Positions 28,269 through 60,772 of a stretch of DNA of 64,000 nt are shown here, one piece after another (position 1 is the first letter of the stretch; every line of letters starts with the position of its first letter). Under the pieces are notes generated by a model, which saw only the letters and a list, made by a program, of their open reading frames with translations, was not told the DNA's origin and did not search any database. A program made the translations under genes and the position numbers. Origin of the DNA: Dysgonamonadaceae bacterium. Its GTDB lineage: Bacteria; Bacteroidota; Bacteroidia; Bacteroidales; Dysgonomonadaceae. The stretch spans positions 374 through 64,373 of the forward strand of contig JAISYO010000043.1 of the NCBI GenBank assembly GCA_031269865.1, given 5' to 3'.

Positions 28269-28343
28269 GGCCCATTCGTCTATCGGTTAGGACGCAAGAT
28301 TTTCATTCTTGAAAGAGGGGTTCGATTCCCCTATGGGCTACCA
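28269..28343 (+). tRNA. tRNA-Glu (anticodon UUC), CCA encoded
   Basis: Hand-folded cloverleaf: acceptor GGCCCAT/ATGGGCT, D stem GTCT/GGAC, anticodon stem CAAGA/TCTTG with loop TTTTCAT, T arm AGGGG-TTCGATT-CCCCT, then ACCA. Confidence 0.9.
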
Positions 28344-47571: not shown

Positions 47572-48618
47572 TCAATTATTTTCTGGACGCAATTTGCGAA
47601 CCACCGCCCCGGTCTGCCACATTTCGCTGTCGTGCAGGATTTTCAGCTCGGCTTCGAGCTTCACTCGGTAATCGGGTTGCGAGTTGGAATCAATGGAACG
47701 TTGCGCCTCGTTGCCGCAAGCCACTTCTGCGTAGAGTTTTTCAAAAACAGGCTTTGTGGCATCGTGGAAAGGTACCATCCAGTCGAGCGCACCGCGTTGA
47801 GCGGTAGTCGAGCAGTTGGCATACATCCAGTCCATACCGTTGGCTGCGAACAGCGGTCCGAGCGATTGCGTGAGTTCTTCCACCGTTTCGTTGAAGGCTT
47901 CCGAAGGCGAGTGTCCGTTTTCGCGCAGCACTTCGTATTGTGCCAACAACAAACCTTGAATCGCGCCCATCAGCGTACCGCGCTCGCCGGTCAAGTCGGA
48001 ATAAACCTCGCGTTTGAAAGTAGTTTCGAACAAATAGCCCGAACCAACGCCGATGCCCAAGGCGATAACGCGCTCTTTTGCCTTTCCGGTTGCGTCTTGG
48101 AAAATCGCGTAACTTGAATTTAAACCCCTGTTTTCGAGAAACATCGTGCGAAGACTCGTACCCGAACCTTTCGGCGCGATAAGGATTACGTCCACATCGG
48201 ACGGGGGGACAATCCCAGTGCGTTCTTTGAAGGTAATGCCGAAGCCGTGCGAAAAATAGAGCGCCTTGCCTGCCGTCAGGTGTTTTTTCACGGTTTCCCA
48301 AAGGGCGATCTGCGCCGCATCGGACAACAGATATTGAATAACCGTGCCGCGCTTGCAAGCCTCTTCGATTTCGAAAAGCGTTTCGCCCGGCACCCAACCG
48401 TCGGCGACGGCTTTGTCCCAGGTCTTGCTGTCTTTGCGCTGCCCGACGATCACGTTGAAACCGTTATCGCGCAGGTTGAGCGACTGCCCCGGACCTTGCA
48501 CACCGTAACCGATAACGGCTATCGTTTCGTTTTTAAGCACTTCACGCGCCTTACTCAAAGGAAATTCATCGCGGGTAACAACGTTTTCTTCTACCCCGCC
48601 AAAATTCATTTTTGCCAT
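47572..48618 (-). CDS. ilvC: Ketol-acid reductoisomerase
   Basis: 348 aa with the Rossmann block IGYGVQGPGQSLNLRDNG. Confidence 0.95.
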   Translation of the reverse strand: MAKMNFGGVEENVVTRDEFPLSKAREVLKNETIAVIGYGVQGPGQSLNLRDNGFNVIVGQRKDSKTWDKAVADGWVPGETLFEIEEACKRGTVIQYLLSDAAQIALWETVKKHLTAGKALYFSHGFGITFKERTGIVPPSDVDVILIAPKGSGTSLRTMFLENRGLNSSYAIFQDATGKAKERVIALGIGVGSGYLFETTFKREVYSDLTGERGTLMGAIQGLLLAQYEVLRENGHSPSEAFNETVEELTQSLGPLFAANGMDWMYANCSTTAQRGALDWMVPFHDATKPVFEKLYAEVACGNEAQRSIDSNSQPDYRVKLEAELKILHDSEMWQTGAVVRKLRPENN

Positions 48619-48700
48619 TTTTTTGTTTGTTTTTGATTGCCGGATTTTATTTTCCCGACAAATATAATGAATAAATAATTTTCAGTTCAGAAATTGTTTC

Positions 48701-49258
48701 TCAATGTTTGTTCTCTTTTTTGTCTTCCTCGCGTTTGGAAAGCATATCGCTCAGCCGCTCAACCTTCGATTTTGTGATGGCGACACGCCCCGAACGGATA
48801 AACTGCAACACGCCGATGCTTTCGCTCAATTCCTCGAACAGCGCCTGCGTGTCTTTGTAATGCCCGGTTTTTTGGATAACCGTCGCGTGTTCGCTCACGT
48901 CCAAGATACGGGCGTTGTGCTTGCGGACGAGCTTTTCCACCATATTGGTAGCCAACAATTTGGACGTATCTATCTTGTATAGGGCGATTTCCTGATGCAC
49001 CAATTCGGCATTGGTATTGTAATACGCCTTCAAAATATCGACGCGCTTATCAATTTGGCGAACCAATTTTTTCATCGCCTCTTCGGTTTCGGAAAACGCG
49101 GTAATCGTGAACTTGTGGATACCTTGTATGGCGGAAGGCGATACCGACAACGTTTCGATATTGATCTGCCTGCGCGTGAAAATGGTGGTAATCTGATTCA
49201 GGACACCGACTGCGTTTTCGGAAAAAATAGTAATGGTGTATAATGTTTTTTCTTCCAT
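48701..49258 (-). CDS. ilvN: Acetolactate synthase small (regulatory) subunit
   Basis: 185 aa with the ACT-domain N-terminus ITIFSENAVGVLNQITTIFTRRQINIESL. Confidence 0.9.
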   Translation of the reverse strand: MEEKTLYTITIFSENAVGVLNQITTIFTRRQINIETLSVSPSAIQGIHKFTITAFSETEEAMKKLVRQIDKRVDILKAYYNTNAELVHQEIALYKIDTSKLLATNMVEKLVRKHNARILDVSEHATVIQKTGHYKDTQALFEELSESIGVLQFIRSGRVAITKSKVERLSDMLSKREEDKKENKH

Positions 49259-49271
49259 AATCGTGAATTTT

Positions 49272-50975
49272 TTAAATTGTATGTCCGTTTCCCAACAAAA
49301 TGTTGGTAACGCAGGTGCCGGCAGGAATCATCGGGTAAACCATACCCTTTGTTTCCACCGCGACTTCGAGCAGGTAAGCGCCCTTATGCGTCAGCATCTC
49401 GTCAATCGCCGCGTCCAAATCGCCGCGCTCGGTAACTTTTTTCCCTTTTATCCCGTATGCTTCGGCAATTTTGATGAAATCGGGGTTTTTCATCTGTGTT
49501 TCCGAATAGCGTTCGTCGAAAAACAACTCTTGCCATTGGCGCACCATTCCCAAAAAATTATTGTTCAGCAAAATGATTTTCACATCAACCCCGTGTTCCA
49601 TAATCGTGCCAAATTCCTGAATCGTCATCTGCAAACCGCCGTCGCCCACGAAAACACAAACCTTGCGATCGGGTGCGCCATATTTCGCCCCGATAGCGGC
49701 GGGAAGTCCGAAACCCATCGTCCCCAAACCGCCGGACGTTACCATACTGCGCGATTGGGTGTACTTGAAATAACGGGTGCCCATCATCTGATTTTGCCCC
49801 ACGTCGGTAACGCAAACGGCTTTGTTTCCGGTGGCTTCCGTTATTTTATTGACGACTTCGCCCATTTTTATCGCGCCTTCCGCCGGGTGCAGTTCGTCAT
49901 CGATCACACAACGGCGCTCTTTTTCGTAAAGCGGCTTAAATTCGCCGATCCAATCCGCGTGGGAATTTTTTTCCATCAGTGCCGTTACCAAGGGCAGGGT
50001 TTGTTTGGCGTTGCCAAGCACTTTTACCGTGGTTTTCACGTTTTTGTCCATCTCGGCACGATCGATGTCGAAATGTATCACTTCCGCTTGCTTGGCATAG
50101 GTATTCAAATCGCCCGTAACGCGATCGTCGAAACGCATTCCGATGGCAATCAGCACGTCGCACTCGTTCGTTTTCAGATTGGGGGCGATATTGCCGTGCA
50201 TTCCCAACATTCCCATATTCAAGGAATGATTGGAAGGAACAGCCGACAAGCCCAAGATGGTGGAACCGAAGGGGATATTCCCTTTTTCGAGAAAAGCTAT
50301 CAACTCTTTTTCGGCGTTGCCGAGGATAACGCCCTGCCCCACCAACGCCAAGGGTTTTTTGGCGCGGTTGATGAGTTCGGCGGCTTGTTTTATCTTTTCC
50401 ATACAAGATTCTATTTCAGGTTGATAGCTGCGCAGGAAAGTCGTTTTTCCATACGAAAATTCACATTCCTTGGTTTGCGCGTCTTTTGCAATGTCGAGAA
50501 CCACCGGTCCCGGCCTTCCGCTCGCGGCGATATAAAATGCCCGCGATACCGCCCACGGAACATCTTCCACGCGGCGAATCTGATACGCCCATTTTGTTAC
50601 CGGTTGTGTTACCCCGATCACGTCCGCTTCCTGAAAAGCATCTGAACCCAACAACGAGGAAGCCACCTGCCCCGAAATAACCACCAACGGCGTGCTGTCC
50701 ATCATCGCATCGGTTATGCCGGTAATGGCATTGGTTGCGCCGGGTCCCGAAGTTACCAACGCCACGCCCACTTTTTTAGAAACCCTTGCATAGCCTTGCG
50801 CGGCGTGTATCGCCCCTTGCTCGTGGCGGACGAGGATATGCTTTATATCGTTTTTGTGATCATACAATGCATCGAATACGGGCATTATCGCACCGCCCGG
50901 ATAACCGAAAATGGTATCCACCCCTTCGTGTAACAACGATTGCAGCAGCGCCTCGCTTCCTGTTAAATTTCTCAT
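49272..50975 (-). CDS. ilvB: Acetolactate synthase large subunit
   Basis: 567 aa with the TPP-binding block GDGGLQMTIQEF. Confidence 0.95.
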   Translation of the reverse strand: MRNLTGSEALLQSLLHEGVDTIFGYPGGAIMPVFDALYDHKNDIKHILVRHEQGAIHAAQGYARVSKKVGVALVTSGPGATNAITGITDAMMDSTPLVVISGQVASSLLGSDAFQEADVIGVTQPVTKWAYQIRRVEDVPWAVSRAFYIAASGRPGPVVLDIAKDAQTKECEFSYGKTTFLRSYQPEIESCMEKIKQAAELINRAKKPLALVGQGVILGNAEKELIAFLEKGNIPFGSTILGLSAVPSNHSLNMGMLGMHGNIAPNLKTNECDVLIAIGMRFDDRVTGDLNTYAKQAEVIHFDIDRAEMDKNVKTTVKVLGNAKQTLPLVTALMEKNSHADWIGEFKPLYEKERRCVIDDELHPAEGAIKMGEVVNKITEATGNKAVCVTDVGQNQMMGTRYFKYTQSRSMVTSGGLGTMGFGLPAAIGAKYGAPDRKVCVFVGDGGLQMTIQEFGTIMEHGVDVKIILLNNNFLGMVRQWQELFFDERYSETQMKNPDFIKIAEAYGIKGKKVTERGDLDAAIDEMLTHKGAYLLEVAVETKGMVYPMIPAGTCVTNILLGNGHTI

Positions 50976-50981
50976 ATATTT

Positions 50982-51608
50982 TTAAATATCGTTTTTGTAA
51001 AATGTATCTATTTCCCAATTTATCGGGTTATTTTCAATGTATTCCGCAATCGTCCCGTGTTCGTGTTGGTCACGGATAATGTGTTCGTGATAATTGCGTT
51101 GCCAAACGGAAAAATCTAATTGTTTGGAAACGGCAGATTTATAACCTCGCATAATCGCACCCACCGTTTGCGATGGCGACCGTAGGGGCGTATTACATAC
51201 GCCCTGATTGCATACGCCCTGATTGCATACGCCATTATCAAATTCATTATCCATTATTTTATTATTTATTGGCGTATTATTTATTGGCGTATTATTTGAG
51301 GGCGTATGCAATACGCCCCTACACGCATCATCGAATTTTGTAACAATTTCCACAATCGCGTGAAAATGATTGGGCATCACAATGAAATTATGTAATTGCA
51401 CATTTGGGCGTAATTCTACCGTTTTTAACCATTCGTTGTGTGCAATTTTTCCCGCATCGTTTAAAATCATTTTTCCACCCGGAATTTCCCCAAACAAACA
51501 TTCCCGATTTTGTACGCAAACGGTTACAAAATATAATCCCACCTGCGAATAATCGTATTCACGCAGGCGAATGCTACGGCGGTGGTGTATATCGGGGTTA
51601 TAGGGCAT
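50982..51608 (-). CDS. RAYT/IS200-like Y1 (HUH) transposase-family protein with an internal repeat-encoded insert
   Basis: 208 aa with HUH block MPNHFHAIV and a C-terminal WQRNYHEHIIRD...YIENNP block. The middle (NTPINNTPINN...GVCNQGVCNQGVCNTPL) is encoded by 15-bp tandem repeats and two GGGCGTAT-N3-ATACGCCC palindromes. Confidence 0.8.
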   Translation of the reverse strand: MPYNPDIHHRRSIRLREYDYSQVGLYFVTVCVQNRECLFGEIPGGKMILNDAGKIAHNEWLKTVELRPNVQLHNFIVMPNHFHAIVEIVTKFDDACRGVLHTPSNNTPINNTPINNKIMDNEFDNGVCNQGVCNQGVCNTPLRSPSQTVGAIMRGYKSAVSKQLDFSVWQRNYHEHIIRDQHEHGTIAEYIENNPINWEIDTFYKNDI

Positions 51609-51702
51609 TTTTATTTTTTTATTGCAATTACCAAAATCGGTGTTTTCATTTCACACAAAACAAATGAAGAGTCTTTCAAAATAGCAAATATCTTTTTCAT
51701 TT

Positions 51703-53559
51703 TCAATTTTCAATTACCCTCACTGCCCCTTTATCTGCCGACGACACCATACTTGCATAAGCCTGTAACGCTTTGGAAATTACTCGATTACGGTCTTTCG
51801 GCGTGAATGCGTTTTTGCCTCGTGCAAACTCTGCGTTGCGGCGATTTTGCAATTCTTCGTCGGAAAGCAACACGTTGATTGAACGCTTGGGAATGTCTAT
51901 TTCTATCGTGTCGCCGTCCCTTACCAAGCCTATCGCGCCACCTGCCGCCGCTTCGGGTGAAACGTGCCCGATGGACAAGCCCGACGTACCGCCCGAAAAA
52001 CGTCCATCGGTAATCAAGGCGCAATCTTTACCCAAATGGCGGGCTTTGATATACGAGGTGGGATAGAGCATTTCCTGCATTCCGGGTCCGCCTTTGGGTC
52101 CTTCGTAGATGATGACGACAACGTCGCCCGACTGCACTTTTCCGCCGAGTATGTCCTCGCAAGCATCGTCCTGCGATTGAAAAACCTTGGCGGTGCCTGA
52201 AAATTTCCAAATGCTCTCGTCCACCCCTGCCGTCTTGACGACACAACCGTCGAGGGCAATGTTCCCTTTCAGTATCGCCAAACCGCCGTCCTTGCTGTAA
52301 GCGTGCGCCAAGTCGCGGATACAACCGTTCTCGCGATCGGCGTCGAGCGCGGCGTACCGTTCGTTTTGCGAACCCATCGCTAAATTGAATCGCTGCGCGG
52401 GTGCGGACGAATAAATATCTTTTGCCGCCGCCGATACGTCGTTGGCGGTAGCGGAATAGCTTGCGATGGCTTCCGACAGAGAAAGCCCATCGACACGCCC
52501 CACCGAGGTGTCAATCAAAGCCCCTTTGTGCAATTCGCCCAAAATGTTCAAAATTCCGCCGGCGCGGTTCACGTCCTGAATATGGTATTTTTTTGTGTTG
52601 GGCGCGACTTTGCAGATGCAGGGGACTTTGCGCGACAAGGCGTCTATGTCGTCCATCGTGAAACGGACTTCTGCCTCGCGAGCAATCGCCAACAAGTGCA
52701 GGATCGTGTTCGTTGAACCGCCCATCGCAATATCGAGCGACATCGCATTGAGAAAGGCAGGGCGCGTGGCTATGTTCCTCGGCAAAACGCTTTTGTCGCC
52801 CTCAGCATAATAGCGATGCGCATTTTCCACGATTTGCCTCGCCGCTTTTTTGAACAATTCAATGCGGTTGGCGTGCGTGGCAACGATGGTGCCGTTTCCG
52901 GGCAACGCCAACCCGATGGCTTCGTTCAGGCAGTTCATCGAGTTTGCCGTGAACATTCCCGAACAAGAACCGCAGGTGGGGCAAGCCAAGCGTTCGAGAT
53001 CCAACACCCGTTTATCGGAAACGGACTCGTCGGCGGACTCAATCATCGCGTCAATCAAATCCACTTGCTCCCCGTCTATCTTTCCTGCTTCCATCGGTCC
53101 GCCCGAAACAAAAATCGCGGGGATATTCAGGCGCATCGCAGCCATCAGCATTCCCGGCGTGATCTTGTCGCAGTTGCTGATACAAACCAAGGCATCAGCT
53201 TTGTGCGCATTAACCATATATTCCACCGAATCGGCAATCAAGTCGCGCGAAGGAAGGGAATACAACATACCGTCGTGCCCCATAGCGATGCCATCGTCCA
53301 CCGCAATGGTGTTGAATTCGGCGGCGAAACAACCCAATTTCTCAATTTCGGCTTTCACTACCTGCCCTATTTCGTGCAGATGCACGTGCCCCGGCACAAA
53401 CTGCGTGAAAGAATTGGCTATCGCGATAATCGGCTTTCCCATCTGTTCCTCAGTCATACCGTTGGCTCGCCAAAGCGCACGCGCCCCCGCCATGCGGCGC
53501 GAGAAGCGATCGCCCCGGAAGGCTATTTTATTCTTGGACGAATTATCCTTGTCTCTCAT
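51703..53559 (-). CDS. ilvD: Dihydroxy-acid dehydratase
   Basis: 618 aa with the CDKITPGM block and Fe-S cysteines. Confidence 0.95.
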
Positions 53560-53597
53560 TTTTTCAATTATTCAAAAAAACATTGATAATCTGATAA

Positions 53598-54668
53598 TTA
53601 TAATGAGCGTATGGCTTTCACAATCCATTCGCCCACCTCACTTGTCGAGTGGGCGGTTGCGCCGTCGGCAATGTCTTCGGTAACGATACCGGCGTCCATA
53701 CTCGCGGTTACAGCCCGACGAATCGCCGCGCCTTCTTCCATTCGGCTGAAAGCATATTCAAACATCAACGCGGCAGAGAGAATGGTAGCCAAGGGATTCG
53801 CTATGTTTTTTCCTGCGGCTTGCGGATAAGAACCGTGAATGGGTTCGAAAACCGACGTATGCACGCCCATAGATGCGGAAGGCAGCATACCCAACGATCC
53901 GGTAATCACGGAAGCTTCATCGGTAAGAATGTCGCCGAAAAGGTTTTCCGTTACCAACACGTCGAAACTTTTAGGAAATTGAATGATGCGCATCGCGGCG
54001 TTGTCCACAAACATATATTCGGTTTCGATGTCGGGATATTGCGGGGCGATTTCTTGCGCGATCTGCCGCCACAAGCGCGACGTGGCAATGACGTTAGCCT
54101 TGTCCACAACGGTAACTTTCTTGCGGCGTTGCCCTGCAAATTTATACGCCAAGTGCAAGATGCGTTCCACCTCTTCGCGGGTATAAACGCAGGTGTCGTA
54201 GGCGGTATTGCCGTCTTCGCTACGCCCTTGCGGACGTCCGAAATACATTCCCCCCGTCAGTTCGCGAATGCAGACAAAATCGGCGCCGTTTACCAAATCG
54301 GCACGAAGCGGCGATTTATGAATCAGCGACGGGAAAGTGCTGACGGGGCGGATATTGGCATACAAACCCAATTCTTTGCGCATTTTCAGCAAACCCTGTT
54401 CGGGGCGCACTTTCGCGTTGGGGTTGTTGTCGAATTCGGGCGATCCGATCGCGCCAAAAAGCACCGCATCGGATTCCATACAGATTTTATGGGTTTCATC
54501 GGGATACGGATTTCCGGTTTGGCGAATGGCACACGCGCCCATCAATCCTTCTTTGTACGTCAATTCGTGTCCGAATTTTTCGCAAACGGCTTTCGTTACG
54601 TCCAAAGCCTGTTTCACAATCTCAGGTCCGATTCCGTCGCCCGGAAGTACAGCTATGTTCAATTTCAT
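53598..54668 (-). CDS. leuB: 3-isopropylmalate dehydrogenase
   Basis: 356 aa with the [12 protein letters not shown] block. Confidence 0.95.
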
Positions 54669-54685
54669 AGGATATATATATTATT

Positions 54686-56239
54686 TTAGGGCAATTGTAT
54701 ATTTTTAAACGTGGGTATATTTCCGCTCTCAACCATATTCAGCATCTTCATCGTGGCTTTGATGGCGGCGGCGGTTTGATCGATGTCTAAACCCCTCGTT
54801 TTGAAAACCTTACCTTCCGATCGCCACGTGATGATGGTTTGCACGTAGGCGTTCGTTTTCCCACCGGGGGGAATCACAACCACATAATCAAGCAGTTCGG
54901 GGACGGGTTTGCCCAAGGACTGATAAATTTTGTACATTGCTTTTGAAAAAGCGTGGTATTGTCCGTCCCCTACCGCAGTTTGCTGATATTCTTCCCCTTT
55001 TATCGAGAGTTTCACGGTTGCCGTGGGGCGAAGCCCGTCAGTCAGTGTCAGCGAATAATTGAGCATACGGATTTCTTGATTTTCGACGCCGTTTTTCAGA
55101 ATGTCGGAAACGAGATAGGGCAGCTCGTCGATGCTGACGGATTGTTTTTTGTCGCCCAACTCAATGACGCGGGCGGTTACTTTTTTCATCGTTTCTTCAT
55201 CGACATCGATGCCCAATGCTTCGAGGTTTTTGAAGATATTCGCCTTGCCGGACGTTTTCCCCAAGGCGTATTCGCGTTCGCGCCCAAAGCGTTCGGGGGA
55301 AAGCTGGCTCGCGTAGAGGTTTTTTTTCTTGTCGCCATCGGCGTGGATACCTGCCACTTGCGTGAAAACATTGTCGCCGATAACCGGACGGTTGTTCGGA
55401 ATGCGCACACCCGAATAGCTTTCCACAATCTTGCTGATGTGGTAAACGTTCTGCTCATTGACATTGGTTTTCAGCTTCAAATGATCGTGGATAACCGCGA
55501 CAACGCTTGTCAAGGGCGCATTTCCGGCGCGTTCGCCCAATCCGTTCACGGTTACGTGTGCGCCTTTCACGCCGGCTTTCAAGGCTTCGAAAACGTTAGC
55601 GACGGCGAAGTCGTAATCGTTGTGGGCGTGGAAATCGAAATGCAAGCCGGGGTAACGGGAAATCATTTTTCTGCAAAACTCTGCCGTTTCGTCGGGGCTC
55701 AATATGCCGAGCGTATCGGGAAGCATAAAACGAAGGACGGCTTCGTTTTTCAATCCATCCATCATCTGAAAAACGTAATCCTGCGAATCGCGCATTCCGT
55801 TCGACCAATCTTCGAGGTAAACGTTTACCTTGATTCCCATTCGCTGCGCGTGTCCGATAACCTCTTTGATGTCTTTGAGATGCTCTTCCTCCGTTTTCCG
55901 AAGTTGGTATTTGCAATGCTTTTCGGAACCTTTGCAAAGAAGATTTACCACCCGGCAACCGGCATTCTTTATCCATTCGAGCGAAAGGGTTCCGTCCACA
56001 AAACCAAGTACTTCCACGCGATCGAGGTGTCCGCGCCCGGTAGCCCATTGCACGACTTTTTTTACCGACTCGTATTCGCCGTCCGACACGCGAGCCGATG
56101 CTATTTCTATCCTGTCCACGCACAATTCTTCGAGCAACAGTCGCGCAATGCTGACTTTTTCGGGGGAAGCAAACGATACCCCCGAAGTCTGCTCGCCGTC
56201 GCGTAGCGTGGTGTCCATTATTTCAATCAACGTGCTCAT
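54686..56239 (-). CDS. cimA: Second LeuA-family synthase, probably (R)-citramalate synthase
   Basis: Contains LRDGEQ, HAHNDYDFAVAN and a C-terminal LeuA_dimer-like region. I set the start at [17 protein letters not shown], 1 nt after the leuD stop. The tracked ORF extends spuriously into leuD. The citramalate versus isopropylmalate call is an inference. Confidence 0.75.
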   Translation of the reverse strand: MSTLIEIMDTTLRDGEQTSGVSFASPEKVSIARLLLEELCVDRIEIASARVSDGEYESVKKVVQWATGRGHLDRVEVLGFVDGTLSLEWIKNAGCRVVNLLCKGSEKHCKYQLRKTEEEHLKDIKEVIGHAQRMGIKVNVYLEDWSNGMRDSQDYVFQMMDGLKNEAVLRFMLPDTLGILSPDETAEFCRKMISRYPGLHFDFHAHNDYDFAVANVFEALKAGVKGAHVTVNGLGERAGNAPLTSVVAVIHDHLKLKTNVNEQNVYHISKIVESYSGVRIPNNRPVIGDNVFTQVAGIHADGDKKKNLYASQLSPERFGREREYALGKTSGKANIFKNLEALGIDVDEETMKKVTARVIELGDKKQSVSIDELPYLVSDILKNGVENQEIRMLNYSLTLTDGLRPTATVKLSIKGEEYQQTAVGDGQYHAFSKAMYKIYQSLGKPVPELLDYVVVIPPGGKTNAYVQTIITWRSEGKVFKTRGLDIDQTAAAIKATMKMLNMVESGNIPTFKNIQLP

Positions 56240-56240
56240 C

Positions 56241-56837
56241 TCAGTAGGCGAAAACGCGCTGTTTTTCGTAAGATTCAATTTTGTCTTTGTTCGACAGCAG
56301 GAAATCAATGTCGTCCAATCCGTTGAACAAACAGGCTTTTTTGTAGGGGTTGATCTCAAAAGACTCGCTTTTCCCCGTTTTGTTGTCCGTGATGGTTTGC
56401 GCTTCCAAATCCACGCTCAGCGTCGTTTTGGGGTTTTCGCCGACATTTTTGAATATCTCTGCCAAAAATCCGGGGCTGACGACGACGGGCAATATGCCGT
56501 TGTTCAGCGCGTTGTTGCGGAAAATATCGGCGAAGAAACTCGACACGACAACCTTGAAGCCGTAGCCTGCAATTGCCCACGCTGCGTGTTCGCGACTACT
56601 GCCCGAACCGAAATTTTTTCCGGCGAGCAAGATCTGTCCGCTGTATGTGGGATTGTTCAGCACGAAATCTTTTTTGGGTTCGCCCGATTTTTCGTAACGC
56701 CAATCGGCGAAAAGATTGTCGCCAAAGCCCTTTTTGTCAGTCGCTTTCAGAAACCGCGCCGGGATAATCTGATCGGTATCCACATTCTCAATCGGAAGCG
56801 GCACGGCTGTACTTGTTAATGTTGTGAATTTGTCCAT
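56241..56837 (-). CDS. leuD: 3-isopropylmalate dehydratase small subunit
   Basis: 198 aa with the [13 protein letters not shown] block. Confidence 0.93.
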
Positions 56838-56882
56838 CTTATTTCTAATATGCTAATAAATAATGCGCTAATATGCTAATGT

Positions 56883-57141
56883 TTAGTTCATTGATTTTTT
56901 AGCAGAATTTATAATGCTTGTCAATAATTTCTTTATTTCAGTTATCTTTTCCAACAAATCCTCTTTGAATGGGTAACTATCTGAATATTTGCACAATTGC
57001 GCCAATGGACGTTCCACTTCGGACAAGTCGCTTTGCTATGTCGAATTTCTTCTCGTCTTCCAATTGCTCTGAAAATGCAACAATTTTCAACGCAAAGTCG
57101 AAAGTCAAATCCACAATCCTATTTCCTGTCTTCCTTTCCAT
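56883..57141 (-). pseudogene. Decayed four-helix-bundle protein gene (23S rRNA intervening-sequence protein family, TIGR02436-like)
   Basis: Frame 1 gives MERKTGNRIVDLTFDFALKIVAFSEQLEDEKKFDIAKRLVRSGTSIGAIVQIFR*. A second frame gives the family C-terminus DSYPFKEDLLEKITEIKKLLTSIINSAKKSMN*. The middle helix is missing. It is flanked by ATTAGCA-type boxes (56845-56881 and 57138-57150). Confidence 0.55.
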
Positions 57142-57151
57142 TAGCACATTA

Positions 57152-58546
57152 TCACATTGTCCTCGGATCGCTTATCCGCCCCGTTACCGCCGCAGCAGCC
57201 GCAATCAGCGGACTTGCCAAAATCGTGCGTGCGCCCGGTCCCTGTCGCCCTTCAAAATTGCGGTTCGACGTCGAAACGGCATATTTCCCTGCCGGAACTT
57301 TGTCGTCGTTCATCGCCAAACAAGCCGAACAGCCGGGTTGCCGCAGTTCAAACCCTGCCTCTTCGAGAATCTTGCCGATGCCTTCTTCCTCGATTTGCTT
57401 GCGCACCTGCCAACTTCCCGGCACAAGCCACGCCGTTACGCGATCGGCTTTGCGTTTGTCTTTCACGAAGTTGGCGAAAACGCGGAAATCTTCGATGCGC
57501 CCGTTTGTGCAACTGCCAAGGAAAACATAATCAATGGCTTTCCCTTCGAGTTTCTCGCCTGCGGAAAAGCCCATATATTGCAAGGATTTCTCGAAGGATT
57601 TTTTTCCGGCATCGTCAATCTCATTCAGTGTCGGGATAGAGCCGTCGATGGGCATTCCCATTCCGGGATTGGTGCCGTAGGTTATCATAGGTTTTATCAG
57701 GGCACAATCGAAAGTAACTTCCTTGTCGAAAGTCGCCCCTTCGTCGGTTTTCAGGGTTTTCCAAACCGCCAATGCCGTTTCCCATCTTTCCCCTTTCGGC
57801 GCAAATTCGCGTCCTTTCACGTAATCGAAGGTAATTTCGTCCGGCGCAATCAAGCCGCCACGTGCACCCATCTCGATGCTCAGGTTGCACAACGTCATAC
57901 GTTCTTCCATCGACAAGGCACGAACCACTTCGCCCGAATACTCTACGAAATACCCTGTCGCACCGCCTGTTGTCAGCCGTGAAATCATATACAATGCCAA
58001 ATCTTTCGCGCCAACGCCTTTCTGCAACTTGCCCTCGAAATTGATGCGCATCGTTTTCGGACGGCTCTGCAAGACACATTGCGAGGCAAGCACCATTTCC
58101 ACTTCGCTCGTGCCGATGCCGAAGGCTATGGCGCCGAAAGCACCGTGGGTAGAGGTGTGGCTGTCGCCGCAAACGATAGTCATACCCGGTTGGGTGTAAC
58201 CGTTTTCGGGACCGACAACGTGGACGATTCCGTTTTTCGCATTGCCCAAGCCGTAGTAAGCCAGCCCAAAATCCACGGCGTTTTTCGCCAATGTATCCAC
58301 CTGAAAACGAGATATTTCATCGCGAATGGGCTGATCTTGGTTCAACGTGGGGATATTGTGATCGGCTGTCAGCGTCGTCTGTTGCGGACGAAAAACGCTC
58401 AGCCCGCGCTTGCGCAATCCAGCAAAAGCCTGAGGGCTTGTTACTTCGTGGCACAAGTGGCGGTCGATATACAATTGTGTCGGTCCGTCTTGGACACTCG
58501 TAACTACGTGCGCGTCCCATATTTTTTCGAACAATGTCTTCTTCAT
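57152..58546 (-). CDS. leuC: 3-isopropylmalate dehydratase large subunit
   Basis: 464 aa with the aconitase-family blocks [12 protein letters not shown] and GSCTNGR. Confidence 0.95.
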
Positions 58547-58572: not shown

Positions 58573-60060
58573 CTATTCCGCAAACTTATTCACGGCATCA
58601 ACAAAGGCTTCCACCGAAGCGGCGACAATATCGGTGTTGGCTGAAAAGCCGTAGTACAGCGAGCCTTTGTGTTCCACCTGCATATGCACTTTTCCCACGT
58701 CGTCACTACCCCGATTGATCGCCTGTATCAGAAATTCTTGGATCACGGTTTCGCGGCTGATAATTCGCTTTACCGCTTTGATGGCGGCGTCCACCGGACC
58801 GTTTCCGGTTGCGGAAGCCTCGAAATGTTCTCCTGCGATATTCAAACCGATGCTCGCCACGTGGCGAACGCCGACACCGCAGGTTACTTGCAGGTATTCC
58901 ACCTTGATGCGGTGCGATTTGCTTTGGCGTCCAATCATCGACAAAATGTCGTCGTCTTTAATGTCTTTTTTCTTGTCAGCCAATTCGAGAAATTTTTGGT
59001 AGGCATCGTCCAATTCCCCGTTATCGAGCTGCACGCCCAGCAGGTTTAAGCGGCTTTTCAGCGCGGCGCGTCCGCTACGGGCGGTAAGCACGATGGCGTT
59101 GTCGTCGATGCCCACGTCTTTCGGATCAATGATTTCGTAAGTCTGCACATTTTTCAGCACCCCGTCCTGATGGATTCCCGATGAGTGCGCGAAAGCGTTG
59201 CGCCCCACAATCGCCTTGTTCGGCTGCACCGGCATACTCATCAACGCCGACACCAAACGGCTCGTGGAATAGATCTTCTGCGTGTTGATATTGGTTTCGT
59301 AACCCAATTCCTTGTGGCTTTTCAACGCCATCACAACCTCTTCCAACGAAGTGTTCCCTGCGCGTTCGCCGATGCCGTTGATGGTGACTTCCACCTGCCG
59401 CGCGCCGTTCAGCACGCCAGCCAGCGAATTGGCGGTAGCCATACCCAAGTCCTGATGGCAATGGGTGGAAAGAATGGCATTTTTCATATCCACGTGATCA
59501 ATCAAGTATTTGATCTTCGCGCCGTATTCCTGCGGAAAGCAGTAGCCGGTAGTGTCGGGGATATTTACCACGGTCGCTCCGGCATCGACGACAGCCTGCA
59601 CCACACACGCAAGGTATTCGTTATCGGTGCGTCCGGCGTCCTCGGCATAAAATTCCACGTCGTCCACGTAGCGGCGAGAGAGCTTCACGGCGTAAATGGC
59701 GCGTTCGATAATCTCGTCGCGGTTGGAATTAAACTTATACTTAATGTGGTAGTCGGAAGTCCCGATTCCAGTGTGAATGCGTTTGCGCTTAGCAAATTTA
59801 AGAGCTTCGGCAGCCACTTCAATGTCTTTGTCCACGGCGCGTGTGAGGGCGCAGATTACGGGCCACGTAACCGCCTTAGAAATTTCCACTACGGAATTGA
59901 AGTCGCCCGGACTTGAAATGGGGAAACCTGCCTCTATCACATCAACCCCCAAGAGTTCCAAGGCTTTGGCAACCTGAATTTTCTCGATCGTATTCAATTG
60001 ACAGCCGGGAACTTGTTCACCGTCCCTCAGGGTGGTGTCAAAAACATACACTTTTTCCAT
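58573..60060 (-). CDS. leuA: 2-isopropylmalate synthase
   Basis: Starts at [16 protein letters not shown], with [12 protein letters not shown] and a C-terminal LeuA allosteric domain. The 25-codon upstream extension in the ORF track covers the predicted terminator, so I reject it. Confidence 0.93.
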
Positions 60061-60087
60061 CTTGTTATGATTCAATTTTATTTTTAA

Positions 60088-60120
60088 GAAAAAACCTTCC
60101 CCACAAGTGTGTGAGAAAGG
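60088..60120 (-). terminator. Attenuator terminator upstream of leuA
   Basis: Minus-strand RNA is CCUUUCUCACA-CACU-UGUGGGGAAGG, an 11-bp stem including G-U pairs, followed by UUUUUU. It lies 28 nt before the leuA ATG. Confidence 0.65.
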
Positions 60121-60165
60121 CTTCAATCTTTTCAACTATATCATTTACATATTGATACGTCAATC

Positions 60166-60231
60166 TCACACACTGAACGATTCCAGTAGTAGAATAGAAA
60201 TGACGAGAATATCAATATTGTTGTTGTACAT
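60166..60231 (-). CDS. Predicted leu-ilv leader peptide MYNNNIDILVISILLLESFSV
   Basis: 21 codons, with 9 of the 11 codons at positions 6-16 being Ile/Leu/Val. The stop UGA is embedded in the anti-terminator arm. Confidence 0.55.
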   Translation of the reverse strand: MYNNNIDILVISILLLESFSV

Positions 60232-60267
60232 AATCGGTTTAGAACACGTTATTTTTTGAAATTGCTT

Positions 60268-60275
60268 GCAAAGTA
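60268..60275 (-). promoter_or_regulatory. Near-consensus -7 box TTACTTTG for the leader/leu-ilv transcript
   Basis: Plus strand reads CAAAGTAA, 37 nt upstream of the leader ATG. It has one mismatch to TAnnTTTG. Confidence 0.35.
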
Positions 60276-60390
60276 AAAGCAAAAAACCCAAACTGCAAAA
60301 TGTTTTTCGGTTTTTTCTTTATTAAAATTACATTTTTCTCGTTTTTGCTTCATTCTTTTTTTTTGAGGTGCCATATTCGCTATTGATTTT

Positions 60391-60574
60391 GCCCTTCGCC
60401 CGTGAGGGCGTAATCTGCATAACCGTGAGCAAGGCGAAGCCGCAGCTTACGGTAAGTCATCTTCCCAACTCCACCCCGTAGCGGGTAGCACCCGTCAGGT
60501 TCAACCCGCTTCGGGGTTGGGGCGGAGGGGGCATTCTGTCCGCAGGTTGCGCTTCGCTTACCTGCGGTTATGCA
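60391..60574. repeat. Long quasi-palindromic, multi-hairpin GC-rich element of unknown function
   Basis: Perfect 10-bp closing stem TGCATAACCG (60416-60425) / CGGTTATGCA (60565-60574). Inner hairpins lie at 60423-60452, 60474-60516 and 60540-60567, preceded by GCCCT-N9-AGGGC (60391-60409). Confidence 0.6.
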
Positions 60575-60772
60575 AATTTTGTTCCTTCGAGACATTTTTT
60601 TCGGTTTGAGCGAGCATCTTTGCGAAACTGCCATATACTCCTCAATTTTTAGAAATTTCGGCGGATGCTTAAACCAACGCTGCTTACAAACCTGAGTTTT
60701 GGATAAGAGATTTGGCTGCGGTTCAAAAAATTACTATCTTCGCCCTCGCAATGAGAATAATTTTCAACGATT

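Follow-up and report, generated by a model that had tools for sequence, protein, structure and literature searches.

The DNA analysed here (the window) is a 64,000-nucleotide stretch of contig JAISYO010000043.1 from a Dysgonamonadaceae bacterium (GenBank assembly GCA_031269865.1), and the element in question is the short leader region in front of leuA, the first gene of a leu–ilv gene string. Coordinates are positions within the 64 kb window; the leader and the leu–ilv genes are read on the minus strand, which was checked from 59900 to 60500. A note made earlier from the sequence alone (the original prediction) had described this region as a leader-peptide attenuator built around a mini-open reading frame (mini-ORF) rich in Ile, Leu and Val. 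The positions it gave for the mini-ORF, the run with nine branched-chain residues in eleven codons, the stop codon within the antiterminator arm, the 11-mer complementarity, the terminator and the 28 nt spacing to leuA are all exact. From the promoter to the first gene, the following features lie at the locus (MFE, minimum free energy).

60296..60299, minus strand: −33-like promoter element TTTG, read from the sequence and aligned with a TTTG that in relatives lies about 19 nt before the −7 box.
60269..60276, minus strand: −7-like promoter element TTACTTTG, with one mismatch to TAnnTTTG, conserved in relatives.
60166..60231, minus strand: leader mini-ORF of 21 sense codons plus UGA, MYNNNIDILVISILLLESFSV, read from the sequence and with homologues in relatives.
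60201..60220, minus strand: 5′ strand of an outer long-range helix, CAAUAUUGAUAUUCUCGUCA, spanning leader codons 4–10 and paired with 60163–60148 in the MFE fold.
60184..60216, minus strand: regulatory codon run, codons 6–16, with four Ile (AUU), four Leu (CUC, CUA, CUA, CUG) and one Val (GUC).
60164..60198, minus strand: inner 1:2 hairpin of codons 12–17 (60198–60182) with 60177–60164, predicted from the MFE fold and RNAalifold to sequester the antiterminator arm.
60164..60174, minus strand: antiterminator 5′ arm AGUGUGUGAGA (region 2), which holds the leader stop codon UGA at 60168–60166 (sequence, covariation).
60148..60163, minus strand: 3′ strand of the outer helix, UUGACGUAUCAAUAUG, directly after the stop codon (MFE fold, alignment).
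60106..60116, minus strand: antiterminator 3′ arm UCUCACACACU (region 3), consisting of the distal terminator 5′ arm and the terminator loop.
60089..60120, minus strand: intrinsic terminator, a hairpin followed by U6 (sequence, fold, conservation).
58573..60060, minus strand: leuA, 2-isopropylmalate synthase, 495 aa, first gene of the string (NCBIfam NF002086, 721 bits, residues 2–494).

The mini-ORF starts with the ATG at 60231–60229 and ends with the TGA at 60168–60166. Codons 6–16 encode I D I L V I S I L L L, with Ile, Leu or Val at 9 of the 11 positions, and the leader contains no Trp codon. The sequence AGUGUGUGAGA at 60174–60164 is the exact reverse complement of UCUCACACACU at 60116–60106 over 11 bp. 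Downstream, the terminator is made up of the 5′ arm CCUUUCUCACA (60120–60110), the loop CACU (60109–60106) and the 3′ arm UGUGGGGAAGG (60105–60095), with the U6 tract at 60094–60089. Its stem comprises 11 bp including two G–U pairs (11–15 bp overall); a maximal stem (GAAGCC...GGUUUU) takes up part of the U-run. A spacer of 28 nt (60088–60061) separates the U-tract from the ATG of leuA at 60060. The relatives of LeuA, among which the best matches come from Proteiniphilum and Petrimonas with 84–89% identity, align from residue 1, which places the start at ATG 60060 and not at TTG 60135. These best matches assign the window to a member of the Dysgonomonadaceae. The mechanical extension of leuA to this TTG (58573–60135) is spurious, and it overlaps the terminator but not the mini-ORF. 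The original prediction, which held that the ORF track hides the leader under a false extension of leuA, was thus right about the extension and its covering of the terminator, but the mini-ORF itself is not covered.

A promoter of the type found in Bacteroidota precedes the mini-ORF. The arrangement TTTG-N19-T(A/T)CTTTGCA is conserved in Dysgonomonadaceae relatives 30–38 nt before the leader ATG, and loci from Bacteroides and Parabacteroides carry the canonical TAnnTTTG in the same place, likewise 30–38 nt before the leader ATG. The consensus used here is the Bacteroidota promoter consensus known from the Bacteroides literature, and on this basis transcription would start near 60262. Because this conserved promoter lies before the mini-ORF, the leader opens its own transcript and is not the tail of an upstream gene. 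The best σ70-type match in this region (TTGACG-17-TATAGT plus a TG upstream, 10/12) is located between the stop codon and the terminator (60135–60163, minus strand). This site within the leader was disregarded, since the primary promoters of Bacteroidota have another consensus and it is a different site that is conserved; relatives do not preserve it as such, and in a genome of this phylum it probably plays no part. A GC-rich stretch (60391–60505, minus strand) immediately before the leader promoter stands out in the otherwise AT-rich intergenic region. No repeat of it was found in the window, its fold is not unusual (z = −0.79), and an 84 aa ORF that overlaps it (60380–60634) has no family match.

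Conservation was examined in the 330 nt upstream of leuA from 77 species-level genomes. These belong to Dysgonomonadaceae, Bacteroides/Phocaeicola/Mediterranea, Tannerellaceae, Apibacter and Flavobacteriaceae metagenome-assembled genomes (MAGs), and cover at least five families in two orders. A mini-ORF was accepted if it starts with ATG, is 12–45 aa long and has at least six Ile, Leu or Val residues within an eight-residue window. Such a mini-ORF is present in 72 of the 77 upstream regions, compared with 9% of their reverse complements and 8.7% of shuffled sequences, and in the relatives it sits about 150–250 nt upstream of leuA. Examples of the encoded peptides are MNTHSIAILVISILLLEDFRG (Petrimonas), MNQSFIHILLCGIIILLAKVGGSECRA (Bacteroides) and MSSFTNIISIILILGQPQGE (Apibacter). 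The N- and C-termini and the length (15–28 aa) vary, while the Ile/Leu/Val core, the frame and the in-frame stop are kept, and the indels in the leader alignment are multiples of 3 nt. At the nucleotide level the Ile/Leu/Val region is strongly conserved among relatives (AUUCUACUUCUGG).

Four loci, mostly from Prevotellaceae/Prevotella MAGs (L021, L051, L057 and L070), have neither the Ile/Leu/Val mini-ORF nor the CCUUUCUCAC terminator in the 330 nt upstream of leuA, which suggests a lineage-specific loss or another operon arrangement. In Bacteroides hominis (L045:1-2193) the leuA leader is found directly downstream of the end of an rRNA operon (23S and 5S rRNA).

The codon usage of the leader differs from that of the genes around it. 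CUA accounts for 0.9% of the Leu codons in 11 window genes (423 codons), compared with two of the four Leu codons of the leader and 38% of those in the leaders of relatives; AUU makes up 84% of the leader Ile codons versus 37% in genes. A structural constraint on the same nucleotides may contribute to this choice. Rare regulatory codons are a known trait of the Escherichia coli leu leader, in which Wessler and Calvo reportedly described the rare CUA in 1981.

The RNA switch itself was examined with MAFFT alignments of 68 sequences, using as a control the pairing obtained when the 3′ partner is slid along the alignment. The 5′ arm of the terminator, (A/G)CCUUUCUCAC, is nearly invariant; 94.2% of the cells of the terminator are paired, and in nearly all relatives a conserved run of 4–8 U residues follows directly after the hairpin. 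The antiterminator core GUGAG(A) lies near the end of every leader ORF and varies hardly, if at all. In Dysgonomonadaceae and in nearly all copies linked to ilvD, the leader ORF stops at the UGA of this core, while in Bacteroides GUGAG codes for Ser-Glu and the ORF runs on for another 10 nt.

Covariation supports the alternative fold in particular. The antiterminator helix has 84.6% of its cells paired, against 30–64% with the partner slid, and five pairs show double changes. Pair 80–156 is found as AU in 29 sequences, GC in 28 and GU in 5, and pair 79–157 as GC in 25 and AU in 19. These covarying positions are unpaired in the terminator, where they belong to the loop, so that they are not accounted for by the terminator. 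The arms occur in at least ten different compensated variants, including a change from G–C to A–U within the core in Apibacter (L062). They comprise GGGUGAGA/UCUCACCC, GGAAGUGAG/CUCACUUCC with further GU..AC, UU..AA and C..G extensions, UAGAGGGUGAGA/UCUCACUUUCUG, AGGAUGAG/CUCAUCCU and the window's own AGUGUGUGAGA/UCUCACACACU. Between the window and its closest relatives the differences in the arms are compensated, with UGU/ACA against GG/CC.

The two structures that involve the leader codons were analysed in the 31 Dysgonomonadaceae sequences. For these, RNAalifold predicts the terminator together with the 1:2 hairpin, formed between the Ile/Leu codons UUCUACUUCUGG and the sequence UCGGAGGGUGAG; 94.5% of the cells of this hairpin are paired versus 35–66% with the partner slid. 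The outer helix (60220–60201 with 60163–60148) has 78% of its cells paired versus 29–52%, and its pair 34–103 covaries (UA 14, CG 5, AU 2, GC 2).

Next, the leader was folded with RNAfold. The 156 nt from 60240 to 60085 (minus strand) reach −50.3 kcal/mol (z = −6.3), and none of 200 shuffled sequences folds as well. Taken in isolation, the antiterminator hairpin (−21.2 kcal/mol) slightly outweighs the terminator (−18.6 kcal/mol). Transcripts ending at 60106 or 60100, where region 3 has emerged but region 4 has not yet, were then folded without the RNA behind the leading edge of the ribosome, which was assumed to lie 13 nt beyond the first base of the A-site codon. With the A-site on any of codons 6–16, 10–11 of the 11 antiterminator pairs form, with energies of −20 to −23 kcal/mol. 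Seven pairs are left when the A-site is on codon 17, four when it is on codon 18, and none from codon 19 to the stop. In these models, the last Ile/Leu/Val codon is therefore the last stall position that leaves the antiterminator arm free.

Association with branched-chain amino acid (BCAA) genes was assessed with a pattern that is blind to protein, GTGAG-N25-55-CCTTTCTCAC-N3-16-GAAAGG, which was searched for in metagenome contigs; the downstream DNA was typed by blastx against the window's own enzymes. The pattern occurs at 120 loci. leuA starts within about 150 nt downstream in 81 of them, a further 24 precede ilvD, usually followed by ilvB, and a few adjoin other ilv genes. About ten of the 120 have neither a leader ORF nor a U-tract and seem to be matches by chance. 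The leaders linked to ilvD are rich in Val (for example MTSQRIYTILVLVVLLLVNNQR, MLHTSINLAVLHIIRVVVLKSRA and MIRPGNGLVILLLVLSPPV), those of leuA in Bacteroides contain Ile and Leu but no Val, and the Dysgonomonadaceae leader, which in the window stands before a fused leu–ilv string, contains Ile, Leu and one Val. Copies of the GUGAG/CCUUUCUCAC switch in front of ilvD–ilvB were observed at loci L082, L091, L095, L103, L110, L134 and L178, among others. Judged from these sequences, the leader peptide appears to be retuned for each operon on a constant RNA scaffold. Such retuning argues that the ORF is read by ribosomes and would otherwise be hard to explain.

The sequence elements, their conservation and covariation, the association with BCAA genes and the thermodynamic geometry were computed here, and from them we infer that the mini-ORF is translated, that transcription actually terminates or reads through at the hairpin and that the choice responds to amino acids. 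We consider it probable, at roughly 85%, that the leader is a ribosome-mediated transcription attenuator that senses the charging of Ile-, Leu- and, less so, Val-tRNA and controls read-through into leuA and the downstream leu–ilv genes. Four features of this mechanistic class were found in the sequence: a leader ORF enriched in Ile, Leu and Val, an intrinsic terminator before the first gene, a covarying antiterminator exclusive with it and a geometry in which a ribosome masks one arm. The reading put forward in the original prediction is thereby supported, as promoter, leader ORF, terminator, antiterminator, sensor hairpin, geometry and gene string are all present and conserved well beyond this genome. 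The comparisons that it had proposed bear it out as well: related leuA upstream regions share the mini-ORF (72/77) and have covarying stems, RNAfold predicts both alternative hairpins in a leader far more stable than its shuffles, and the masking of the arm by a ribosome at the stop codon and its release by one on the BCAA codons agree with the position of the stop within the arm and with the truncated folds, given the assumed +13 leading edge.

The mechanism would operate as follows. Transcription would start at the Bacteroidota-type promoter near 60262, and the RNA could adopt two mutually exclusive folds. In one, region 3 (60116–60106 together with the rest of the 5′ arm) would pair with region 4 (60105–60095), which with U6 makes up the terminator; in the other, region 3 would pair with region 2 as the antiterminator. 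As long as the RNA is not translated, region 2 is predicted to be held in the 1:2 hairpin with the Leu codons, enclosed by the helix between codons 4–10 and the sequence after the stop, and termination would be the default. When BCAA are plentiful, the ribosome would reach the UGA and cover region 2, the terminator would form and most transcripts would end at about 60089. When charging of Ile-, Leu- or Val-tRNA is low, the ribosome would stall within codons 6–16, which include two rare CUA codons. The stalled ribosome would melt the 1:2 structures and free region 2, which could then pair with region 3 while region 4 is still to be transcribed, and the polymerase would read on.

Several observations weigh against this attenuator model or against parts of it. 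When the full transcript is folded with a ribosome footprint, the terminator is the MFE structure at every ribosome position. Equilibrium thermodynamics alone can thus not show switching, for which reason the truncated transcripts were used instead, and the model relies on co-transcriptional kinetics and on the assumed +13 leading edge. A terminator that is the thermodynamic optimum of the complete transcript is usual for attenuators. To our knowledge, coupling of transcription and translation is undemonstrated in Bacteroidota, where initiation is mostly not led by a Shine–Dalgarno sequence. Among the rows listed of a table of transcription start sites of B. thetaiotaomicron, obtained by differential RNA sequencing (dRNA-seq) from cells in rich medium, no start site for leuA was found, which carries no weight for or against the leader. 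The leader terminator is not listed by a simple promoter/terminator scanner, probably because the maximal stem absorbs part of the U-run. Most helix positions show no covariation owing to their strongly conserved core sequences, and the covarying pairs follow lineages, so that the number of independent events is modest (about ten, not dozens). Within the gene string of 12.5 kb, the 314 nt that separate leuC from leuD and the inserted ORF resembling a Y1 transposase could contain signals of their own. The remaining points concern the 1:2 sensor hairpin, which is the less secure part of the model. Its covariation is weak, with six double-change cells in the 31 Dysgonomonadaceae sequences. An equivalent hairpin forms in most single-sequence folds across families, but with modest stability (mean z about −1), and RNAalifold predicted no pairs on the 68 sequences, leaving no cross-family consensus. 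The register of the hairpin is specific to each lineage, which accounts for the missing consensus and limits its support to the Dysgonomonadaceae alignment and the single-sequence folds.

Other explanations were weighed against the same evidence. The switch could be real but set by a ligand that binds the leader RNA (for instance a protein, an uncharged tRNA or a small molecule such as guanosine tetraphosphate, ppGpp), with the mini-ORF incidental to a conserved RNA. The conservation of the Ile/Leu/Val nucleotides could indeed reflect a constraint on RNA rather than on peptide, as they are also part of the 1:2 hairpin. Such a ligand would, however, not require that ATG, open frame and in-frame stop be kept in 72 of 77 genomes despite variable termini and lengths of 15–28 aa, that indels come in multiples of three, that a rare codon be enriched, or that ilvD-linked leaders turn Val-rich while the core of the switch is unchanged. 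Moreover, no match to the T-box, ykkC/ppGpp or other Rfam families is obtained, and apart from the ORF the leader has no large structured domain that is conserved. We regard this explanation as very unlikely, and hold just as improbable that the leader peptide acts after initiation by a route other than intrinsic termination, be it Rho-dependent termination, mRNA stability or translation of leuA. For the latter route speak the start of leuA only 28 nt after the U-tract and the sensitivity of Bacteroidota translation initiation to structure near the start codon; against it, the hairpin lies clear of the start region of leuA and is directly followed by the conserved run of 4–8 U residues, the signature of intrinsic termination.

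The hydrophobic and conserved core of the peptide (ILVISILLL) would also fit a functional small membrane peptide, for which the hairpin would serve as terminator or as insulator before leuA. Neither the termini nor the length of the peptide are conserved, though, and the rarest Leu codon is used. The stop or 3′ end of the ORF always overlaps the arm complementary to the terminator, the complementarity covaries, and the element is tied to two kinds of BCAA operon with matching amino-acid content, all of which makes this alternative more improbable still. Lastly, an AT-rich intergenic region could by chance combine a short ORF with an ordinary terminator left from the upstream gene, since Ile/Leu/Val-rich ORFs occur in about 9% of AT-rich controls. 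The element is conserved across two orders, the pattern-only search returns BCAA operons in about 90% of its matches, and the conserved upstream promoter assigns the terminator to a transcript that starts just before the mini-ORF. Covariation, conservation of the mini-ORF and the gene association in the motif search effectively refute this chance explanation.

The genes that the attenuator would control form, by family assignments, the string leuA–leuC–leuD–cimA-like–leuB–ilvD–(Y1-transposase-like)–ilvB–ilvN–ilvC on one strand, as the original prediction of a leu–ilv gene string had it. The part downstream of leuA extends over 47572..58546 (minus strand, family searches).

57152–58546, minus strand: leuC.
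56241–56837, minus strand: leuD.
About 54686–56245, minus strand: cimA/leuA2-like, a citramalate-synthase-like paralogue of leuA.
53598–54668, minus strand: leuB.
51703–53559, minus strand: ilvD.
50982–51608, minus strand: Y1-transposase-like ORF.
49272–50975, minus strand: ilvB.
48701–49258, minus strand: ilvN.
47572–48618, minus strand: ilvC.

The intergenic gaps are short (38 nt between leuB and ilvD) except for the 314 nt between leuC and leuD. No second attenuator motif was found in the string, for instance before ilvD or ilvB, and the only match, at 52757, is intragenic and due to chance. A terminator scan of the string gave internal terminator-like sites no more often than expected by chance. 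The genes would thus seem to be transcribed as a single unit.

Two insertions were noticed within the string. The leuC–leuD gap (56838–57151) holds a truncated ORF (56977–57147, minus strand) that resembles the 23S rRNA intervening-sequence/four-helix-bundle family (Pfam PF05635, 25.4 bits, below the cut-off of 33.8), and is probably the decayed remnant of a selfish gene inside the operon. Between ilvD and ilvB, on the operon strand and 6 nt before ilvB, lies an ORF of 208 aa (50982–51608) with similarity below threshold to REP-associated tyrosine transposases/IS200-like Y1 transposases (NCBIfam 56.8 bits against 80, Pfam 21.9 against 23). Elsewhere in the 64 kb window, a tRNA gene at 28269–28340 (plus strand) is the only match at the Rfam gathering threshold.

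Scans with Rfam 15 at the gathering threshold gave no match for the leader, either in the whole window or in six representative loci. The models of the Bacteroid-trp leader (RF01692), the T-box and the ykkC/ppGpp riboswitches likewise match neither in the window nor in these six loci. Leu_leader (RF00512) has no match at the gathering threshold in the whole window and none even at E ≤ 10 in 59800–60700. In that permissive scan, which follows another suggestion of the original prediction, the only hit over the element is Phe_leader (RF01859), below threshold; with 20.1 bits against a gathering threshold of 55 (E = 1.3), membership of this family was rejected. From its sequence, the leader would work like the classical enterobacterial leu/ilv attenuators, but it belongs to no catalogued RNA family.

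The literature on such leaders in Bacteroidota is sparse. Some long 5′ untranslated regions of B. thetaiotaomicron are reported in its transcriptome paper to hold small ORFs reminiscent of leader peptides. A survey based on RegPrecise and Rfam lists only two RNA-motif regulogs in Bacteroidaceae (PMC3766115), and leuA leaders of Streptococcus were still reported as new in 2016 (PMC5314783). No description of a Bacteroidales leuA/ilv leader was found in the accessible literature; Vitreschak et al. (2004) and Lopatovskaya et al. (2010) may hold earlier predictions. As far as checked, with no Rfam 15 family and none in accessible papers, the statement that no Bacteroidales leu–ilv leader of this form has been described holds. 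The 2004 abstract by Vitreschak and coworkers is said to mention attenuators 'in some cases' in Bacteroidetes/Chlorobi, and may thus have priority. The element appears to represent a widespread Bacteroidota family that is formally undescribed so far. That it constitutes a phylum-wide, uncatalogued RNA family on leuA and ilvD operons in Bacteroidales and Flavobacteriales, with a nearly invariant GUGAG / CCUUUCUCAC / GAGAAAGG switch, a stop codon usually in the antiterminator arm and peptides retuned to the operon (Ile/Leu for leu, Val-rich for ilv), is in our view slightly better than an even bet.

The mechanism is textbook, and the conceptual surprise is small. If the family is real, its ubiquity would imply tight coupling of transcription and translation in Bacteroidota despite initiation that is independent of Shine–Dalgarno sequences, and it would offer a tractable system for studying this coupling in bacteria of that kind. 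Bacteroidota are the dominant Gram-negative phylum of the gut, and their cis-regulatory RNAs are sparsely catalogued; the family would supply the seed of a covariance model for Rfam. The attenuator would also provide a naturally occurring readout of how far Ile-, Leu- and Val-tRNAs are charged in Bacteroides of the gut, a setting in which BCAA produced by microbes are linked to the metabolism of the host. For annotation, the gain lies in the leuA start at 60060 and in a leader mini-ORF that is currently unannotated.

The closest published counterpart comes from the same phylum. From transcriptome data of Flavobacterium psychrophilum, Guerin et al. (2021; PMC9723704, supplementary D9 and Table S7) suggested that its ilvE, his, phe and trp operons are attenuated through leader peptides. 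As in the window, a leader-peptide attenuator is thus proposed before BCAA genes, but the operon there begins with ilvE and not leuA, and the order is Flavobacteriales and not Bacteroidales. The published 5′ region of ilvE (437 nt, THC0290_N_0324) contains three tandem leader units, of which the last two are of the MTTNTIIIISIIIRSFE type with the family motif. These two units read ATGACAACAAATACAATTATTATT...TTCGAGTGAGT...AAGCCTTTCTCATTCACTTGAGAAAGGCTTTTTTTT, with the core GUGAG / CCUUUCUCA / GAGAAAGG and the stop codon inside GUGAG, and the printed sequence carries GAGUGAG...AAGCCUUUCUCA...GAGAAAGGCUUUUUUUU, the same motif as the leuA leader. The authors highlight the first unit, with an upstream ORF of 25 aa (MRKFNIIPSIIIAIVIITTAKGML); the conserved switch is not described and no family is defined (PMC9723704).

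The Bacteroid-trp leader (RF01692; Weinberg et al., 2010, PMC2864571) is a predicted leader-peptide-type cis-regulatory RNA of Bacteroidetes, and like the leuA leader it lies upstream of amino-acid biosynthesis genes; its regulatory codons, however, are Trp codons and it precedes the trp operon. Phe_leader, the only Rfam model that aligns with the whole element (60220–60086), shares the architecture of a long hairpin and a terminator. With the enterobacterial leu leader (E. coli leuL, RF00512), for which the attenuation mechanism is summarized in PMC5314783, our element has in common a run of Leu codons, the logic of 1:2, 2:3 and 3:4 hairpins and a terminator just before leuA. It differs from leuL in showing no similarity in sequence or to the covariance model, in its mixed Ile/Leu/Val peptide, in a stop codon placed within the antiterminator arm, in its Bacteroidota-type promoter and in the absence of a Shine–Dalgarno sequence.

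A leader rich in all three BCAA that controls ilv genes by multivalent sensing is also found before E. coli ilvGMEDA (ilvL) and ilvBN (ivbL), where multivalent attenuation is textbook knowledge. Attenuation of the ilvL/ivbL type is cited generally in PMC10272879. The fold and sequence of ilvL and ivbL are unrelated to those of the present leader, which stands as one attenuator before a fused leu and ilv string; its relatives, unlike the window, have separate copies for leuA, with Ile/Leu leaders, and for ilvD, with Val-rich leaders.

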